Part shown: piece by piece, positions 4,130 to 16,113 of the stretch
Position numbering within the stretch: the first letter of the stretch is position 1
Layout: each line of letters opens with the position of its first letter
Assembly: GCA_039630085.1 (NCBI GenBank)
Contig: JBCNVM010000012.1
Coordinates: 1-27,596, forward strand
DNA: 27,596 nt
Source of the DNA: Candidatus Caldarchaeales archaeon
Lineage (GTDB): Archaea; Thermoproteota; Nitrososphaeria_A; Caldarchaeales; Calditenuaceae
Reading direction: 5' to 3'
The notes under the pieces: model-generated
What the model was told of the DNA's origin: nothing
Databases searched by the model: none
Seen by the model: the letters and a program-made list of their open reading frames with translations, nothing else
Position numbers and translations under genes: made by a program

Positions 4130-5069
4130 CCCGAGCCCCTCCGATCCTCACCGCGAAGTTCAGGACCTCGCCCGCTAGCCACCTCGCCGCCTCTCTCGAC
4201 GTCATCACGGTGTCCGTCACCAGCACCTCGATCCCGAACCTCGACCTGATCGGGCCCGCGAACTCCTCGTCGGCCCTGTCGATGACCAGCCCGTCTATCA
4301 GCCCCTCATAGAACTGCGCCACCCCGACCACGCCGGGCTCGTAGCCGAACGCAACCATGAGCCTGTCCGCGGGACCCCTCATCGCCTTGCCTCCCACTAT
4401 CGGGCTGACCGCGACCTTCACGGAACCGGAGCGCCTTATCGCCTCCTCCACGCCCTTCGTCTCGAGGATCGGCCTGACGCTCAGGATCGGGTTGCTGGGA
4501 GCGAAGACGATCGCCTGCGAGCCTGTGAGAGACTCGATCACGCCCGGCGCCGGCACCTCGCCGGGCGACCTGACCCTCCTGACCTCGAGGACATCGGGAG
4601 CGGTGCCGCGCTCGACGAAGTACTCCTGGAAGCTCATCGTCCCCTCCTTCGTGACTACCCTCGTCTCGACCCTGAAGTCGGTCATCGGCAGGACCCTGCA
4701 CCTGATCCCCATCCTCCTCGTCAGCTCCCCGGTGACCTGCGAGAGGCTCATCCCCTCCCTGAGCATCACGGTCCTGAGCAGATTGACCGCGAGGTCCATG
4801 TCACCGATCCTGAACCAGTTCTCGAATCCCAACCTCCCGATCATCTCGTTGCACCTGAAGGTGTCGCCCCTGATCCCCCATCCCCTCTCCCAGTCGCCGA
4901 TCCCCGAAAGGGCGTAGAGGACCGTGTCGACGTCCGGGGAGACGTAGAGGCCGTAGATCACCTCGTCGTCGGCCGTGTTCACGATCACGACGAGCCTCTC
5001 GCCCAGCAGGTCGTAGAGCCCCGCGGCGAGCCTAGAACCCCCGACGCCTCCCGAGAGCAGCGCGATCAC
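4125..5069 (-). CDS. cofD: 2-phospho-L-lactate/PEP transferase CofD (FbiA), F420 biosynthesis
   Basis: True start is GTG 5069 (GTGA overlap with the upstream stop). Motifs LSGGVGGSRL, IVNTADD, GLYVSPDVDTVLY, WFRIGDMD, FQEYFV, APSNPILS, AVSPIVGG and GPADRLM. The ORF-track extension to 5447 is spurious. Confidence 0.95.
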   Translation of the reverse strand: MIALLSGGVGGSRLAAGLYDLLGERLVVIVNTADDEVIYGLYVSPDVDTVLYALSGIGDWERGWGIRGDTFRCNEMIGRLGFENWFRIGDMDLAVNLLRTVMLREGMSLSQVTGELTRRMGIRCRVLPMTDFRVETRVVTKEGTMSFQEYFVERGTAPDVLEVRRVRSPGEVPAPGVIESLTGSQAIVFAPSNPILSVRPILETKGVEEAIRRSGSVKVAVSPIVGGKAMRGPADRLMVAFGYEPGVVGVAQFYEGLIDGLVIDRADEEFAGPIRSRFGIEVLVTDTVMTSREAARWLAGEVLNFAVRIGGARD

Positions 5070-5707
5070 GGCGGGTTCCCCCACCTGTCGACGTGCGCGA
5101 CCTCCCTGAGGGTCATCCTCGTCGGCGGCCTGATCCCTCCCGGCAGGCCCACCTCGACCATCGCCTGCGGCTCGACGTGCTCCGGTATCCCGAGGACCCT
5201 CCTGACGGCTTCGGGCGCGAAGAGGGGGCCGCTCCTCCAGCAGGCGCCGAGCCCCAGAGCGTGGAGCGCGAGGAGCAAGTTCTCGATGAAAGCGCCGATC
5301 GACTGGACCGCCATCAGGTACTCGCACCGGGCCCTCCGCTCGTCGGGGTAGACGTCCATGTCCTCCATCGTGAGGCATACCACGATCAGCACCGATGCCC
5401 TCAGCGTCCTCTTCATCGACTCCCTCACTATCGCCTCGATCCTCCACTCCGGGTGGCCGTCGGCCCTCAGGTCGGCCCTCCAGACTTCCGCCATCTCCTC
5501 GAGGAGCCTGACGATCGTCTCCCTGTCCTTCACTACCACGACCCTCCAGGGCTGGGCGTTGTGGGCGCTGGGCGCGTAGGTAGCGACCTCGACGGCCTTC
5601 AGCACCAGTTCGAGGGGGACCTCGCCAACGCCGAGCAGCTTCGACGACCTCCTCGACCTGATGACCTCCAGCAGCCCCTCGGCCTCCCGCGCAGGGCCCG
5701 ATGTCAT
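5066..5707 (-). CDS. Nitroreductase-family protein resembling the FbiB C-terminal (dehydro-F420-0 reductase, FbiE-like) domain
   Basis: Start ATG 5707 (ATGA overlap). Motifs IRSRRS, APSAHNAQPWR, MAEVWRADLRADG, MAVQSIGAFIENLLLALHALGLGACW and PLFAPEAVRRVLG. It lies directly upstream of cofD. Confidence 0.85.
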   Translation of the reverse strand: MTSGPAREAEGLLEVIRSRRSSKLLGVGEVPLELVLKAVEVATYAPSAHNAQPWRVVVVKDRETIVRLLEEMAEVWRADLRADGHPEWRIEAIVRESMKRTLRASVLIVVCLTMEDMDVYPDERRARCEYLMAVQSIGAFIENLLLALHALGLGACWRSGPLFAPEAVRRVLGIPEHVEPQAMVEVGLPGGIRPPTRMTLREVAHVDRWGNPP

Positions 5708-6384
5708 CCGGCAGTGCTGGTCTCCGGCCCGAGATAACCGCTCCGGGCCGCGCCCGCGATCGCCTCGGCGATCCTGAGGTCCTCGGGCGTGTTGACGTTG
5801 ACCGCGAAGCCGGGATCCTCGACCGTCACGAAGTGCGGGCTCGAGAGGGCCGCGTCTACCGACCCTCCCTTGTACCTGATCAGCCTCACGCCAGTCGGGA
5901 AGAGCGGTCTGCCGTCGACGGTGTATCGGGTCGCGCTCCTGAGGGACGTGCCGAACGACTTGACCAGCTCCTCGCGGACCACCACCACGACGTAGTCCAT
6001 TTCGGAGAGGTCGCCGCGGGAATGCCTCGACAGCAGTTCTTCCACCACCTCCGGCACCAGGAACGGGACGTCGGCCGAGAAGGTCGCGTAGAGTCCCGGG
6101 CCGAGCGCCGAGAGCGCGAACTTCAGGTCCTCCAAGTAGCCCCCTCCAGGAGCCTCGATCACCTCGTATCCCATCCGCCTCAGGAACTCGGTCGTCCTCG
6201 GAGCGAACCTGCTCGTCACGCAGATGACCCTGCTCAGCGACCTCACCGCCGCGAGCCGGTCCAGGACGTGCTCGACCATCTTCTTGCCCTCGAGCTCGAC
6301 CAGCGGCTTCTCCACGCCCCCGCCCATCCTCGTCCCCCTTCCGCCGGCCATCAGCAGGCCAACGTGGCTCCGGCCCTCGCGCAT
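5704..6384 (-). CDS. cobY: CobY-like NTP (guanylyl)transferase, adenosylcobinamide-phosphate guanylyltransferase family
   Basis: Motifs MAGGRGTRMGGGVEKPL, VTSRFAPRT, APGGGYLEDL, SADVPF and VNVNTPEDL match the archaeal CobY pattern. Confidence 0.8.
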   Translation of the reverse strand: MREGRSHVGLLMAGGRGTRMGGGVEKPLVELEGKKMVEHVLDRLAAVRSLSRVICVTSRFAPRTTEFLRRMGYEVIEAPGGGYLEDLKFALSALGPGLYATFSADVPFLVPEVVEELLSRHSRGDLSEMDYVVVVVREELVKSFGTSLRSATRYTVDGRPLFPTGVRLIRYKGGSVDAALSSPHFVTVEDPGFAVNVNTPEDLRIAEAIAGAARSGYLGPETSTAG

Positions 6385-6411
6385 CGTCTGACTCTTCCCT
6401 CCCGCGTCGGG

Positions 6412-6488
6412 CTTTTAATGCTGGGCTGTGCCCCTGATCCCAGATCCGATTATAAACATTTAAATGCATTCAGAGAGCGGCTTTAAAT
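6412..6488. promoter_or_regulatory. Divergent promoter region cobY/tbp with several TATA-like boxes
   Basis: TTAAAA on the minus strand (6418-6413), about 29 nt before cobY. TTATAAA (6450-6456), TTTAAA (6459-6464) and TTTAAA (6482-6487) lie upstream of tbp. Confidence 0.5.
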
Positions 6489-7966: not shown

Positions 7967-9874
7967 TTGGTGGCTCGCCTGATGGCGGCGAGGGACATTC
8001 CGCCGGGGACGGGCCCCCTGCCCCTCGAGAAGAGGGTTGACCCGGATTGGTGGAAGCGGATCTTCAGCGATCTCTACCTCGTCACCGACGGCGACGTCGT
8101 CTGCAACAGGAGGCTCACGGAGCGCGAGGTCGACCTGATCGTCGAGCTCTTGGACCTGGACAGGGACGACCGCGTGCTCGACCTCTGCTGCGGCAACGGC
8201 AGGCACTCGCTGGAGCTCGCGAGGAGGGGCTTCGGGAACGTTCACGGGCTCGACTACTCGCGGGACCTGCTTCAGGTCGCTGAGGCGTCCGCATTCAGGG
8301 AGGGGCTCAGCGTGAGGTTTAGGAGAGGTGACGCGCGGCGCCTGCCCTACCGGGAAGACCAGTTCGACGCCGTGATCCTGATGGGCAACAGCTTCGGTTA
8401 CTTCCGGGACGAGCACGACGACCTCAGGGTCCTTAGGGAGGCTCACAGGGTCCTGAGGCCCTACGGGAAGCTGCTGATCGACGTCACCGACGGGGAGGCG
8501 TTCAGGGCGCAGCTCGCGCCGGTGAGGGCGGAGACACACGACGGCGCGGTGGTCGTGAGGCTGAGGGAGCTCTCCTCCGACGGCAAGAGGGTCTACACGA
8601 GGGAGATCGTGGTCTCGGGGGACGCGGTCCTCGCGGACCATGTCTACGGCATCAGGCTCTACGCGTTCGGGGAGCTTCGGGACCTGCTGCTGAGGGCCGG
8701 GTTCGCGAACGTCTCCCTCAGGGCTAGGCTGACCTACGACCCCGACGACAAGGACCCGGGGCTGATGGGCTCGAGGATGGTCGTGACCGCGCTCGCCGTG
8801 AAGCCAGCCCGCAGCGACGAGCGGAGGCCTTTGGTCGTTGTCCTGCTGGGAGACCCTAGGAGGCCCAACCCCGTCAAGCCCGGCGGGAGGTTCGACGAGG
8901 ACGACGAGGTCGCGGTCAACGAGCTCAAGTCGGTCCTTCACGGCATCAGGGAGTACAGGTTCGTCTTCCTGGACGACCACTCGGCGATGCTTAGGTTCCT
9001 CCAGGAGAACGCGGACTCGATCCACTTGGTGCTGAACCTCTGCGACGACGGCTTCCTCAACGACCCGCGGATGGAGGGTCACGTCGCCGCGATGTTGGAG
9101 GTCCTCGGCATCAAGTACACCGGGGCGGGACCTGCATGCCTGAGCATCTGCTACGACAAGTCGGCGGTCAAGGCTATCGCCAGGTCGATGGGCGTGCCGG
9201 TCCCCGATCACGCGCTGGTGCGGAACTCCGTCGACCTGAGAAGGGTGCCGGGGAGGCTCTTCCCGTGCATCGTCAAGCCGAACTTCGGCGACAACAGCTG
9301 GGGAATAACCGAGAGGAGCGTCGCGAGGGACAGAAGCGAACTCGAGGCGGCCGTGAGGTCGCTGAAGGACGAGTGGGGCTACGGGGGCCCGGTATTGGTC
9401 GAGAGGTTCGTCGAGGGCCGCGACCTCACGGTCTCGGTGATCGGCAACCCGCCCGACCTCGTCTTCCTTCCGGTCCTCGAGGAGGACTACTCGAGGCTGC
9501 CGGACGGCCTGCCCAGGATTCTGACCTACGACGCGAAGTGGAACCCGGGCTCGCCCTACGGTTCAGTCGAGTCAGTGCCCGCTAGGCTCCCCGACGGAGT
9601 CAGGAGGAGGCTCCTCGGGTGGAGCGGCGTCCTTTTCGAGAGGCTGGGCTGCAGGGACTACGCGAGGTTCGACTGGAGGCTCGACGCGGAGGGAAGGCTC
9701 TGGATGCTCGAGGCGAACCCGAACCCCGGATGGGTCTGGGACGGACACTTCAGGAAAGCCTGCAGGCAGGCTGGGTGGACCTACGGGAGGATGTTCAGGG
9801 AGATCATCCGTGCGGCTGAGCGCAGATACCGGCTCGGGTGCAGCGGCCGTCCGTTCAAGACGTCGAGTCCTTGA
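7967..9874 (+). CDS. Class I SAM methyltransferase fused to a D-Ala-D-Ala-ligase-like ATP-grasp domain
   Basis: N-terminal VLDLCCGNGRHS, GDARRLPY and MGNSFGYF. C-terminal LGIKYTGA, CYDK, FPCIVKPNFGDNSWGI, VLVERFVEGRD, CRDYARFDWR and LEANPNPG. The start could be 7967, 7970 or 7982. Confidence 0.9.
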   Translation: MVARLMAARDIPPGTGPLPLEKRVDPDWWKRIFSDLYLVTDGDVVCNRRLTEREVDLIVELLDLDRDDRVLDLCCGNGRHSLELARRGFGNVHGLDYSRDLLQVAEASAFREGLSVRFRRGDARRLPYREDQFDAVILMGNSFGYFRDEHDDLRVLREAHRVLRPYGKLLIDVTDGEAFRAQLAPVRAETHDGAVVVRLRELSSDGKRVYTREIVVSGDAVLADHVYGIRLYAFGELRDLLLRAGFANVSLRARLTYDPDDKDPGLMGSRMVVTALAVKPARSDERRPLVVVLLGDPRRPNPVKPGGRFDEDDEVAVNELKSVLHGIREYRFVFLDDHSAMLRFLQENADSIHLVLNLCDDGFLNDPRMEGHVAAMLEVLGIKYTGAGPACLSICYDKSAVKAIARSMGVPVPDHALVRNSVDLRRVPGRLFPCIVKPNFGDNSWGITERSVARDRSELEAAVRSLKDEWGYGGPVLVERFVEGRDLTVSVIGNPPDLVFLPVLEEDYSRLPDGLPRILTYDAKWNPGSPYGSVESVPARLPDGVRRRLLGWSGVLFERLGCRDYARFDWRLDAEGRLWMLEANPNPGWVWDGHFRKACRQAGWTYGRMFREIIRAAERRYRLGCSGRPFKTSSP

Positions 9875-12273: not shown

Positions 12274-13848
12274 GTGGGGAACTGGGACCCGGCCGCGGCG
12301 CTGGAGTATCACGAGGCGACGAAGCACAGCTACGTCTCGGTGAGGATGCCCGGGAGAGGGCTCGACTGGGAGAACTTCCCGTATCCGTTCAAGGTTTACC
12401 CCGACGCGCCGAAGGTCGAGCTCCCGAGCTCCTTCCCGTCGCCGGCGCCGAGCGTCCTCGAGGCCTTTGGGGGCTCCGTCCCTCTCACCAAAAGGGTGTT
12501 GGAGCTGGACCTGATCGCCGAGTTGCTCTTCTACAGCGCTGGAATTACCAGAATTAAGGATTACGGGTGGGGGAGGGTCTACTTCAGGGCCGCGCCGGCC
12601 ACAGGAAACCTCCACGAGACTGAGCTCTACCTGGTCGTCGGGGGAGGGGGAGAGCTCGAGCCGGGCGTTTATCACTTCGACCCGTGCGAGTTCTCGCTCT
12701 CGCAGCTCAGGCGCGGCGACTTCAGGGAGAGGCTCTCGAGGTCGACGCTCTCGCCGGAGATCGGGTACTCGGGACTCTCGATCGTGCTGAGCTCGGTCGC
12801 GTGGAGGAACGCGTGGAAGTACGGACCCAGGTCCTACAGGCACTGGTTCTGGGACGGAGGCGCGCTCTGCGCGAACCTGCTGGCCGTCTCGAGGGCCGAG
12901 GGGCTGGAGCCGGAGGTGCTGATGGGGTTCGTGGACGAGGAGGTCAACGCTCTGATCGGCGCCGAGCCACCGAGGGAGGCGGCGATAGCGGTGGTGGTCC
13001 TGAAGGGGATCGAGTCGAGTCCCCCGGGCTCGAGCCCGCCCACCGACCCGATTCGTTACCGGCCGATGCCCTACTCGAGGCGCGAGGTCCAGTACAGGGA
13101 GATCGCGGAGGCCCACGCCTCCTCCTGCCTTCGCGACGCCGACGAGGTGGCGAAGTGGAGGGAAGGTGTGAGGAGGCTGAGGCCGACCGGCGACTTTGAG
13201 CCCCCTGCGGCCAGCGGGCTGCGGAGCGACCTGCGCCCCTTACCGCTCGGCGAGGCGATCCTGCTACGGGGCTCCACAAGGAAGTTCTCCCGGACAGCAA
13301 TCCGCGGCGAGGTGCTGCGGGCCGTGACGAGGGCGATCAGCGCTCCGATCGAGGCCGACTTCGTCCCGAGAGGGCTGCCGACGCTGCTGGAGCGGTTCGC
13401 GATCGTGAACGCGGTCGATGGACTCGACCCGGGCTCCTACCTACATGAGCTCGGGAGCTGCGAGCTCCGCCTCCTCAGGCCCGGGAACTTCAGGAGGGTC
13501 GCGGGGTACCTCTGCCTGGAGCAGAGCCTGGGGAGCGACGCCTCGGTCGTCCTCTTCCTGATGGCGAGGCTCGGGGAGGTCCTCGGACACACGGGCAACA
13601 GGGGCTACAGGGCGGTCCAGTTCGAGGCAGGAATAAGGGTCGGACATGCGTACTTGGTCGCGTACTCGCTCGGGATCGGTGCGACTGGGCTGACGTTCTA
13701 CGACGACGATGTCCGGGAGTTCTTCGCGCCTGCCTCCAACGGCATGGAGAACATGATGGTGGCGGCGCTGGGGAACCCGTCCTACAGGTCCAGGCCCGGC
13801 AAGGTCCACCTCCGGGACTGCAGGCACCCGGCCTCGGAGAGGGCGTGA
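12274..13848 (+). CDS. SagB/ThcOx-family dehydrogenase with two nitroreductase-fold domains
   Basis: Motifs YHEATKH, LDWENFPYPFKVY, RAAPATGNLH, WRNAWKYGPRSYRH and GFVDEEVN. The second domain has ILLRGSTRKF, RGYRAVQFEAG and GIGATGLTFYDD. Confidence 0.9.
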   Translation: MGNWDPAAALEYHEATKHSYVSVRMPGRGLDWENFPYPFKVYPDAPKVELPSSFPSPAPSVLEAFGGSVPLTKRVLELDLIAELLFYSAGITRIKDYGWGRVYFRAAPATGNLHETELYLVVGGGGELEPGVYHFDPCEFSLSQLRRGDFRERLSRSTLSPEIGYSGLSIVLSSVAWRNAWKYGPRSYRHWFWDGGALCANLLAVSRAEGLEPEVLMGFVDEEVNALIGAEPPREAAIAVVVLKGIESSPPGSSPPTDPIRYRPMPYSRREVQYREIAEAHASSCLRDADEVAKWREGVRRLRPTGDFEPPAASGLRSDLRPLPLGEAILLRGSTRKFSRTAIRGEVLRAVTRAISAPIEADFVPRGLPTLLERFAIVNAVDGLDPGSYLHELGSCELRLLRPGNFRRVAGYLCLEQSLGSDASVVLFLMARLGEVLGHTGNRGYRAVQFEAGIRVGHAYLVAYSLGIGATGLTFYDDDVREFFAPASNGMENMMVAALGNPSYRSRPGKVHLRDCRHPASERA

Positions 13849-13886
13849 GGTCGCTCCTTTACCGTTATATGGGATGAGTCAGCACT

Positions 13887-14465
13887 ATGGGTATGGTGAT
13901 GGACTCCAAGGTGAGGGCGATCACGAGGAGAGAAGTGGTCACGATCGACGAGGGCTCGACGGTCGAGGAGGCCGCGAAGCTGATGGGCTCAAAGGGGATC
14001 GGCGCGCTAGCGGTGACGAGGGAAGGGAGGATCGTGGGGATCATCACGGAGAGGGACGTCCTCAAGCGCGTCGTCGCCGAGGGGAGGGACCCCAAGCTCA
14101 CGAAGGTGAGGGACGTGATGACCTCGCCGCCGATAACCGTCGGCCCCGACACGGCCATCAGGGAGGCGATAGACTTGATGAACAGGAAGAGGATAAGGAG
14201 GCTGCTGGTCGAGGAAGCGGGCAGGATCGTGGGGATCTTCACGCAGAGGGACATCCTCGCCCTCACGAGGATCTGCCTCTACTGCACCAAGGAGATCTCG
14301 CTGCTCGCGCCCACCGGGAACGGCGAGCCGCTGATCGTCTGCGGATGCGGTGCGATGTACCACAGGTCCTGCGCCGCGACCGTCGTTTACTGCCTCGACT
14401 GCTCCGTGAAGCTGGTCGAACCGGTGAGAGTGCCCGCGCCGGAGGACACGCTTGCCGCCGACTGA
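13887..14465 (+). CDS. CBS-pair protein with C-terminal C4HC3 RING/PHD-like zinc finger
   Basis: CBS motifs VGIITERD, VRDVMTSP and VGIFTQRD, then C-x2-C-x18-C-x-C-x4-H-x2-C-x6-C-x2-C. TTATAT at 13865-13870. The start could be 13887, 13893 or 13899. Confidence 0.9.
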   Translation: MGMVMDSKVRAITRREVVTIDEGSTVEEAAKLMGSKGIGALAVTREGRIVGIITERDVLKRVVAEGRDPKLTKVRDVMTSPPITVGPDTAIREAIDLMNRKRIRRLLVEEAGRIVGIFTQRDILALTRICLYCTKEISLLAPTGNGEPLIVCGCGAMYHRSCAATVVYCLDCSVKLVEPVRVPAPEDTLAAD

Positions 14466-14553: not shown

Positions 14554-16113
14554 TTGACGTCTCAGGTGAGATTCGAGGAGATCAGCCCAGCTGACTTCTT
14601 CTACAGGAACAGGGACTTGGCGGGCTTCACCAACCCCGCGAGGTCCCTCTACATGTGCATAAGGGAGCTGGTGGAGAACAGCCTCGACGCCACCGAGATC
14701 ATCAAGGTCCCCCCGAACGTGTGGGTGCAGCTCGAGCCCGCCGACGAGCAGAACGAGCGGATCCTCAGGCTGACCGTCAGGGACAACGGGATCGGCGTCG
14801 AGGGCGACAAGATACCGAAGGCCTTCGGGACCGTCCTCTACGGGAGCAAGTACGGGTTCAAGCAGTCCAGGGGGACTTTCGGTGTCGGCGGGACGATGGC
14901 CCTCCTCTACGGCCAGATCACCACGAACCAGGCGTTCACGATCACCTCCAGCACCGGAGGGAAGGAGATCCACGAGTACAGGATGATGATAGACATCGTC
15001 GAGAACAAGCCCAAGGTCCTCGAGCACAACATCCTCCCGAACCAGAAGGGGTGGAGGGGGACCGCAGTTAGGGTGACGCTCGAGGGCGACTACGCGGGGA
15101 GCAGGTCCAAGATCCTCGAGTACTTCACGATGACCGCGGTCGTCAACGCCCACGCCAACATCGTCTTCGTCGACCCGAAGTACAGGACCTACGTCTTCAG
15201 GAGGGCGATCGAGGACGTCCCCGAGCCTCCGAGGGAGGGGAAGCCGCACCCCTTAGGCGTAGACGTCGAGACGGTGAACAGGCTTCTGGCGAACACCAGG
15301 TCGAGGGACATCAAGTCCTTCCTCACGTCGGAGTTCCAGAGGGTGGGACCGAAGACCGCGGAGGAGGTCCTGGAGCTCGCTGGGATAGAACCGAGCAGGA
15401 GGGTCAAGGAGATCACCCACGACGAGGTCACCAGGCTCGTCGAGGCCTTCAAGAACTACGGGAAGTTCAGGGCTCCCGAGACCGGCACCATCAGCCCCGT
15501 CGGGACCAAGTTCATCGAGGCCGGCCTGAAGGCGATCTACAGGCCTGAGTTCCTCCACGTGGTCCAGAGGCCCCCCTCCAGCTACTCCGGGATACCCTTC
15601 GTCGTCGAGGCCGCGATCGCCTACGGCGGGGCCATCGAGCCCTCCGAGGAGATCCACCTGCTCAGGTTCGCGAACAAGATACCCCTCCTCTATGACGAGA
15701 AGGCGGACGTCTCGTGGAAGGTCATCTCCGAGAGGATCGACTGGAGCGCGTACAAGGTCCAGAGGGGGATGCCGGTGCTGGTCCTCACGAGCCTCTGCTC
15801 CCCCAAGGTCCCCTACAAGACGGTGGGGAAGGAGGCGATCTCCGACAGGCCCGAGATCGAGAGGGAGCTGACGATCGCGATCAGGGAATGCGCTAGGGAG
15901 CTGAGGCTCTACCTCAGCAGGCTCGAGAAGCGGGAGGCCGCGAAGAGGAGGCTCAGCGTCTACGCCAGGTACCTGCCGATGATCGCGAAGAACGCCGCCT
16001 ACGTGGCCGGGGCATCTCCACCGGACGTCATGCCGCTCCTGAAGTCGATCGGCGTCACGGCGAAGATGGTCGAGGAGGAGGCGAAGGCCCTCGCCGAGGA
16101 GCTAGCCTCCTGA
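14554..16113 (+). CDS. top6B: DNA topoisomerase VI subunit B
   Basis: ISPADFFYRNRDLAGF, GHKL motifs RELVENSLDA, DNGIG and QSRGTFGVG, then KPHPLGVD, PFVVEA, RFANKIPLLYD and KVPYKTVGKE. TTG 14554 is preferred over the ORF-track start at 14452. Confidence 0.97.
   Translation: MTSQVRFEEISPADFFYRNRDLAGFTNPARSLYMCIRELVENSLDATEIIKVPPNVWVQLEPADEQNERILRLTVRDNGIGVEGDKIPKAFGTVLYGSKYGFKQSRGTFGVGGTMALLYGQITTNQAFTITSSTGGKEIHEYRMMIDIVENKPKVLEHNILPNQKGWRGTAVRVTLEGDYAGSRSKILEYFTMTAVVNAHANIVFVDPKYRTYVFRRAIEDVPEPPREGKPHPLGVDVETVNRLLANTRSRDIKSFLTSEFQRVGPKTAEEVLELAGIEPSRRVKEITHDEVTRLVEAFKNYGKFRAPETGTISPVGTKFIEAGLKAIYRPEFLHVVQRPPSSYSGIPFVVEAAIAYGGAIEPSEEIHLLRFANKIPLLYDEKADVSWKVISERIDWSAYKVQRGMPVLVLTSLCSPKVPYKTVGKEAISDRPEIERELTIAIRECARELRLYLSRLEKREAAKRRLSVYARYLPMIAKNAAYVAGASPPDVMPLLKSIGVTAKMVEEEAKALAEELAS

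Follow-up and report, generated by a model that had tools for sequence, protein, structure and literature searches.

A CBS pair joined to a RING-superfamily finger in Caldarchaeales archaea: a candidate nucleotide-gated adaptor related to srfp

Proteins that carry a small Cys-containing module behind a CBS pair include TA0289 of Thermoplasma acidophilum (184 amino acids; PDB 1pvm and 2qh1) and the cyanobacterial CBS-CP12 proteins (PDB 5nmu, 5npl, and 5nvd), and both resemble the product of a gene found at positions 13887..14465 (+ strand) of the window, the whole stretch of 27,596 nucleotides that was analysed from a Candidatus Caldarchaeales archaeon (contig JBCNVM010000012.1). This product, referred to below as the fusion, joins a CBS pair to a C4HC3 finger and a short tail. 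The small Cys-rich C-terminal metal domain of TA0289, which we take to be a four-Cys single-metal site, belongs according to the PDB title of 2qh1 to a CBS-rubredoxin-like protein in its Fe2+-bound state, and iron binding by TA0289 is mentioned in one report (PMC7521041). The CBS part of the fusion is homologous to TA0289 (E 8.1e-19), and the match of a profile of the fusion (A2) to 1pvm ends at position 143. The C-terminal parts differ, that of TA0289 being rubredoxin-like and Fe-bound by its PDB title, whereas the fusion has eight ligand positions, RING homology, and an additional tail. CBS-CP12 is alike in its CBS pair (34% identity over ~120 residues), and its CP12 module acts by binding a partner enzyme. 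That module is, in contrast to the finger, an intrinsically disordered disulfide peptide rather than a zinc finger, and the C-terminal modules of the two proteins are non-homologous.

For the finger itself, relatives are found among RING domains. The C-terminal C4HC3 RING of Slx1 (PDB 7cq2, 7cq3, and 4zdt), which binds the partner protein Slx4 and is not a classical ubiquitin ligase (E3), is among its best structural matches; Slx1 is, however, a eukaryotic GIY-YIG nuclease fusion with 18-24% identity, and the likeness is one of fold only. Prok-RING_1 (PF14446), the prokaryotic RING finger family 1 reportedly defined by Burroughs, Iyer and Aravind in 2011, has a finger spacing in common with the fusion, which itself falls under the family cut-off; the Prok-RING_1 proteins retrieved here were FHA fusions, tandem fingers, or large surface proteins, with no CBS fusion among them. 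From the lineage itself comes the small RING finger protein (srfp), encoded in the ubiquitin operon of Caldiarchaeum subterraneum and described as its E3-like component (Nunoura 2011, PMC3082918; Hennell James 2017, PMC5654768). According to the latter source it is required for in vitro ubiquitylation, which is impaired by each of the substitutions I30Q, W58A, and R69A. A CBS-RING fusion in archaea was not found described in the literature searched, and might be listed in the 2011 study. An earlier note on this DNA knew of no characterised protein with such an architecture, which agrees with the literature searched as regards CBS-RING proteins but overlooks the related CBS-rubredoxin-like TA0289.

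The gene and the parts of its product are as follows:

13865-13870, + strand: TATA-like TTATAT, read from the sequence, ~26 nucleotides 5' of ATG 13893
13887..14465, + strand: whole open reading frame, 192 amino acids and stop (sequence; 26 orthologues of 189-193 amino acids)
13908..14075, + strand: CBS domain 1, approximately residues 8-63, with GIITERD (PF00571; T54 and D57 invariant)
14106..14261, + strand: CBS domain 2, residues 74-125, with GIFTQRD (best Pfam stretch; T119, D122, R104, and R105 invariant)
14274..14402, + strand: RING-superfamily finger, putatively binuclear for zinc, residues 130-172 (Cys conservation, hhalign against srfp, Prok-RING_1 retrieval, AlphaFold model)
14403..14462, + strand: conserved C-terminal tail, residues 173-192 (orthologue alignment)

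The finger is a RING-superfamily (C4HC3) domain. It reads C-x2-C-x18-C-x-C-x4-H-x2-C-x6-C-x2-C (CLYC-x18-CGC-x4-H-x2-C-x6-CLDC) from C130 (codon 14274-14276) to C172 (codon 14400-14402), exactly the coordinates and spacing that had been reported for it. A C4HC3-type regular expression matched 3 of the 17,788 stop-to-stop frames of at least 40 amino acids in the host genome, the other two being RING-like proteins, and the rarity of the pattern together with its retention in 26 orthologues indicates that it is more than chance. In the orthologues, all of identical architecture, the seven Cys residues of the finger are invariant (26/26), as are G155, Y158, and Y168, while the fifth ligand position is occupied by His in 20 of them and by Met in six. 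This His to Met exchange (CGAVYM[QM]EC) occurs in six species of genus g5 (L020, L021, L022, L024, L025, and L029), which retain the seven Cys and in which no compensating His, Cys, or Asp was found nearby. From the ligand pattern we infer that the finger is occupied by zinc. It is followed by a tail of fixed length (20 residues; S-x-K-L-V-x-x-V-x-x-P-x-P-E-D-T-x-x-x), in which all 26 orthologues have P185 and T188, and at least 90% of them V177, V180, and P183; all 19 orthologues from beyond the host genus terminate exactly in Gly, metagenome orthologues likewise carry the conserved tail, and its motif has no second occurrence in the host genome.

Homology to the RING fingers of the same lineage was detected by profile comparison. 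An alignment of the finger of the fusion (A3) matched an alignment of 30 srfp-type RING fingers of the same order (A6) at 95.4% in hhalign (E 1.7e-8, 44 columns), with the eight ligand positions all in register. As controls, the C4 zinc ribbons that end other CBS proteins of this lineage gave 2% against A3 and 5% against srfp, so that the srfp signal is not a general artefact of Cys-rich sequences; an srfp query does not retrieve the fusion at E <= 0.01. Pfam by itself does not decide the identity of the finger: Prok-RING_1 was the best match of the tail part, followed by the Vps8 RING and PHD_NSD. Its scores for the whole protein (14.6 bits), for the tail alone (17.3 bits), and in the genome scan (16.2 bits) lie under the gathering cut-off of 29.1, and the protein is thus not a Prok-RING_1 member by the Pfam threshold. 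As far as sequence profiles indicate, the Prok-RING_1 link of the finger is transitive only, via A3. Searched against 1.84 billion representative proteins, this profile gave 23 matches at E <= 0.001, consisting of further CBS+finger proteins, a solitary 56-residue finger followed by the same tail, proteins with several fingers, and two chitin-binding proteins (P0006 and P0008; CBM_14) that were discarded as false positives of a Cys-rich profile. Five of the retrieved proteins pass the PF14446 cut-off (P0021, 50.9; P0023, 38.6; P0015, 34.6; P0017, 31.5; and P0020, 29.8 bits), and certain fingers of the multi-finger proteins share the spacing C-x-C-G-x-x-Y-H-x-x-C-x6-C-x2-C. A further protein, P0005 (104 amino acids), appears to be a chimeric gene call and was used as an alignment row only. 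In the metagenome protein P0015 (418 amino acids), an FHA domain precedes four or five C-x-C-G-x-x-Y-H-x-x-C fingers in tandem, and fingers of this type also form the ends of P0013, P0016, P0019, and P0020, surface-type proteins of very large size with PKD, FG-GAP, and Big domains.

Structural comparison points in the same direction. An AlphaFold model of residues 125-192, built from 34 sequences, has a mean predicted local distance difference test (pLDDT) score of 82.5. Foldseek, which the earlier note had proposed for this part of the protein, returned RING domains for nearly all of its top matches, at weak scores: APC11, the Slx1 C4HC3 RING (TMq 0.64, root-mean-square deviation 1.8), RNF4, RNF126, and RNF13. 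Rescoring of these matches agrees on RING domains as the best. Among 48,161 chains, the VIA aligner placed the APIP6 RING first (Z 5.3-5.4, root-mean-square deviation 2.3, 51 aligned), with the alpha-COP RING-like domain, Slx1 (Z 4.5), Nse1, and EL5 as runners-up. A feature search of the ESM Atlas returned clusters of RING and Prok-RING_1 domains, whose values of 0.77-0.82 amount to a lead at most. The finger had originally been called RING/PHD-like, and of the two terms RING is the one borne out; a PHD finger was rejected as, despite the fit of its C4HC3 pattern, PHD_NSD reaches 14.5 bits against a cut-off of 23.9 and PF00628 was not reported. PDB sequence searches with the tail part gave weak PHD matches (E 0.1 and 5.5) and thymidine-kinase zinc-site matches, all at E of at least 0.1.

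The CBS pair claimed for the N-terminal part is genuine, since PF00571 matches in two stretches (114.4 bits, cut-off 24; E 2.9e-33); NCBIfam gave partial CBS-type matches only, all far under their cut-offs. CBS domains contact ribose through a G-h-h-T/S-x-x-D motif. In the fusion, a G-h-h-T-x-x-D motif in each domain and the RR pair are invariant in all 26 orthologues, the model has a pLDDT of ~77-96 over the CBS blocks (residues 21-120), and the structural neighbours of the pair are nucleotide-binding CBS proteins. The pair would thus be expected to dimerise and to bind an adenosine-containing ligand, namely adenosine mono-, di-, or triphosphate (AMP, ADP, or ATP) or S-adenosylmethionine.

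A six-frame search with the last 68 residues located the fusion, in one copy each, in 26 of the 76 genomes of the host order, and the A3 profile recovered the same 26. Within family f1 it was found in genera g1 (6/6 genomes) and g4 (1/1) and not in g2 (0/3) or g3 (0/8); family f2 has it throughout (18/18), and families f3 (0/4) and f4 (0/35) lack it. An even sample of 401 phylum genomes yielded 22 matches, all of them in f1 or f2, and the 341 sampled genomes outside the order gave no match. No finger remnant was found in g2 or g3 with the queries used, and candidate degenerate remnants there were rejected, their best matches being orthologues of two other small CBS-pair proteins, which end in a C4 ribbon and a C2H2-like finger.

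These two paralogues are encoded in the host genome at G000:C1:62079-62672 (-) and G000:C1:126987-127568 (+), and both are conserved in the sister genera without the fusion. Their C-terminal modules differ, being a C4 zinc ribbon (CDSCGEW...CEEC) in one and a C2H2-like finger (CPYCG...HIDRVH) in the other. The presence of such siblings in the same genome suggests a general design in which a CBS sensor is combined with a mini zinc-finger output. With TA0289 as a further example, the fusion thus belongs to a wider CBS-sensor and mini metal-finger design, its finger having been recruited from the lineage's RING family.

The function that we favour for the fusion, with slightly more doubt than belief, is that of a nucleotide-gated, non-ligase adaptor with a RING-derived output. 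It would be a small cytoplasmic regulator in which the N-terminal CBS pair serves as the sensor and the RING-derived finger, together with its fixed-length acidic tail, as the output; the finger would be a diverged paralogue of srfp that has lost several of the features kept by srfp for its work with ubiquitin-conjugating enzymes (E2). The CBS pairs are envisaged to dimerise, ligand binding would then alter the presentation of the two finger-plus-tail modules, and these would bind a partner protein, which would be sequestered or activated. Parallels would be the control of a partner enzyme by CBS-CP12 and the binding of Slx4 by the Slx1 C4HC3 RING without ligase action.

The main rival is that the fusion is a true energy-sensing RING E3, or an E3 co-factor, in which nucleotide occupancy switches ubiquitin transfer from the charged E2 (E2~Ub) or the choice of substrate. 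This is judged unlikely, though well within consideration, and its more specific form, an energy-charge-gated RING E3 or E3 regulator in which a dimeric RING assisted by its tails would be turned on or off by the AMP/ATP occupancy of the CBS dimer, is a shade less likely again. For it speak the homology of the finger to srfp, itself needed for ubiquitylation in vitro as noted above, the ubiquitin systems of the host, one of which lacks an adjacent RING gene (see below), and the possibility that CBS dimerisation could yield a dimeric RING with C-terminal tails, by analogy with RNF4-type E3s. The fusion and srfp have in common their lineage, the C4HC3 order, the core C-G-x-x-[YF]-H-x-x-C, and hydrophobic residues at C2+4 and C6+4 (counted from the ligands). 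They differ in that srfp-type proteins are stand-alone or membrane-anchored RINGs whereas the finger of the fusion is joined to a CBS pair, in C3-C4 spacing (x in the fusion, x2 in srfp), in what follows the last Cys (20 conserved residues as opposed to 5-9 in srfp), and at the following positions:

C6-C7 spacer (helix/loop): 10-11 residues in srfp (n = 30); 6 residues in the fusion (n = 26)
Residue after C7: Pro 30/30 in srfp; I/L/V/M 26/26 and Pro 0/26 in the fusion
Residue after C8: R/K 27/30 in srfp; S/G/A 26/26 and R/K 0/26 in the fusion
Fifth ligand: His 30/30 in srfp; His 20/26 and Met 6/26 in the fusion

Several of these differences speak against a canonical E3. None of the 26 fusion fingers has the Pro that follows C7 or the basic residue that follows C8, both near-universal in srfp, the C6-C7 helix/loop is shorter by 4-5 residues, and six orthologues have Met in place of a zinc ligand. 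Among the substitutions reported to impair Caldiarchaeum srfp, W58A and R69A also bear on this point (PMC5654768). The role in ubiquitylation proposed in the earlier note is accordingly upheld as to RING homology and the presence of a host ubiquitin system, and weakened by the missing Pro-C7 and R/K-C8 hallmarks and the lack of linkage to ubiquitin genes.

That the host belongs to the lineage with ubiquitin, activating enzyme (E1), E2, and RING genes, which had been posed as a condition, was confirmed. Contig C65 carries a gene for a ubiquitin-like protein ending in GG, an E2 (UQ_con 92.9 bits), an E1 (ThiF 204.7 bits), and then a 186-amino-acid gene of no assigned function, with no RING gene adjacent to the operon. 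A second ubiquitin-like cluster (G000:C23 ~62050-67400; L095:2054-7383) encodes an E1-like protein (280 amino acids), a 141-amino-acid membrane protein, a ubiquitin-E2 fusion (272 amino acids, its ubiquitin-like part ending in VGG), and a JAB/Rpn11-like protein (163 amino acids); among the genomes of the order, this second E2-type match is confined to genus g1. Approximately 2.2 kb beyond the cluster lies a gene for a 105-amino-acid RING-like protein (Prok-RING_1 22.9 bits) with a degenerate first ligand pair. The host also encodes a 49-amino-acid srfp-like RING (G000:C2:3552-3698 (-), L006/L033; zf-RING_2 29.5 bits, above the cut-off), unlinked to the ubiquitin-E2-E1 operon and directly upstream of a mevalonate-kinase-like gene; many other genomes of the order have the orthologue of this srfp-like RING next to E2. 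A C4HC3 RING (CVMC...CPGCGEPMHREC...CPNC; zf-RING_2 26.7 bits) is also found at the C-terminal end of a multi-pass membrane protein encoded at G000:C1:248484-249351 (+), of which most genomes of the order have a ~240-amino-acid paralogue, often beside srfp and E2.

The E2 counts refer to the 76 genomes of the order rather than to the phylum sample. E2 occurs in 75 of these and srfp-type RINGs likewise in 75, and the co-occurrence of the fusion with E2 is therefore uninformative, E2 being present in 49 of the 50 genomes without the fusion as well. The test by co-occurrence proposed in the earlier note thus fails to discriminate, and the distribution it had named as contrary to a ligase, mainly in genomes lacking E2 or ubiquitin, was not seen. 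Gene neighbourhoods argue against the ligase: srfp and the membrane RING are often within a few kb of E2 (e.g., G045, G052, G012, and G057), whereas no ubiquitin, E1, E2, or JAB gene lies within ~1.5 kb of the fusion at any of its 26 loci. A complex prediction for E2 (alignment A5), the finger (A3), and two zinc ions scored 0.00 in a run without controls and speaks neither for nor against binding.

Several points weigh against the adaptor, some of them because they would suit a ligase as well. Positions equivalent to E2-contact sites are hydrophobic throughout (C2+4 I/L/V 26/26, C6+4 V/I/L 26/26, and C7+1 26/26), and a basic residue is present at C8+3 in 25/26 fusion fingers, so that an E2-binding groove is possible. 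The fusion is found only in genomes bearing ubiquitin and E2 (26/26, with none of the 341 sampled phylum genomes outside the order), which fits a role in the ubiquitin system too. No partner was identified, and no conserved neighbourhood among the 26 loci points to one. The fold-match scores of the finger model are weak (Foldseek E of at least 0.05; Z at most 5.4). In a RING cross-brace, one zinc is held by ligand pairs 1 and 3 and the other by pairs 2 and 4, which in the fusion would be C130/C133/H159/C162 and C152/C154/C169/C172; with such scores, and with archaeal ribosomal zinc-ribbon proteins among the structural matches at Z 3.5-4.3, this pairing is supported by the model of the finger but unproven.

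It is improbable that the fusion is instead a metal or redox sensor of the TA0289 type, in which the Cys-rich domain would bind Fe or another redox-active metal and report its state together with that of the CBS ligand. The CBS homology to TA0289 and the iron associated with that protein, by the title of 2qh1 and the mention in PMC7521041, are consistent with such a sensor, and the exchange of His for Met in 6/26 orthologues is unusual for zinc but known from Cu and Fe sites. Two structural zinc sites rather than a four-Cys knuckle are, however, indicated by the eight ligands in C4HC3 order and by the RING homology, the C-terminal domain of TA0289 was left unaligned by the A2 profile, and the tail of the lineage's own CBS+C4-ribbon protein is unrelated to the finger, as the hhalign control indicates. 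Least probable of all is a nucleotide-gated nucleic-acid-binding regulator whose finger and tail contact DNA or RNA, to which the C2H2-like and C4-ribbon fingers of the paralogues (classes that often bind nucleic acids) and the ribosomal matches lend some colour, but against which stand the acidic tail (PEDT), the few conserved basic residues of the finger, the protein-binding RINGs that are its best relatives in both structure and sequence, and the want of a helix-turn-helix domain and of a conserved regulatory neighbourhood.

The open frame comprises 192 codons and a stop, and its probable true start is ATG 13893 (residue 3), the matching codon of which opens the closest orthologues. The gene had been credited with a TATA-like box of its own, which was located as TTATAT; its distance to ATG 13893 fits a leaderless transcript, in which case it would serve as the promoter. 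Its placement just upstream of top6B is correct for the window, where top6B is the next gene 3' (14554-16113 (+); Topo-VIb_trans E 8.4e-57), but does not hold as conserved context. At the other loci the downstream gene is a 2-hydroxyacid dehydrogenase (f2, 18/18), a flavin adenine dinucleotide oxidoreductase (g4), or an unassigned gene (the rest of g1). As top6B adjoins the fusion at only 4 of 26 loci, those of the four closest genomes, and probably starts at TTG 14554 behind its own TATA-like GATATA at ~14517, a functional link between the two was rejected. No top6A adjoins top6B, the sole TP6A_N match in the genome being on another contig (G000:C56:27275-27466), and the next gene downstream of top6B is on the other strand and encodes a DedA/VTT membrane protein. 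Elsewhere in the window, a 635-amino-acid frame at 7967-9874 (+) combines an S-adenosylmethionine-dependent methyltransferase (residues 65-180) with a D-Ala-D-Ala-ligase-type ATP-grasp C-terminus (430-614), and may represent either a fusion or a pair of genes read as one through a weak start. Nitroreductase-family proteins are encoded at 12274-13848 (+; 524 amino acids) and 5066-6469 (-; 467 amino acids), and the adjacency of the latter to CofD suggests F420-related chemistry.

Close relatives of the fusion carry the public name "CBS domain-containing protein" with PF00571 as their sole precomputed domain, and word-index homologue searches returned close relatives only; a RING-derived finger in CBS-fused proteins has thus been missed by public annotation. 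The Caldarchaeales ubiquitin system is a reference model for the origin of ubiquitylation, and srfp is its only studied E3-like component. The fusion indicates that the RING finger of this lineage was also duplicated and joined to a metabolite sensor. If it works with E2, it would represent a regulated, substrate-selecting E3 in an archaeon, and if it were energy-gated, a metabolic input into a prokaryotic E1/E2/RING cascade, the first to be known, and an example of RING diversification predating eukaryotes. If it does not work with E2, it would represent an early reuse of the RING fold as a non-ligase binding module. Both outcomes are directly testable in the published in vitro archaeal ubiquitylation cascade.

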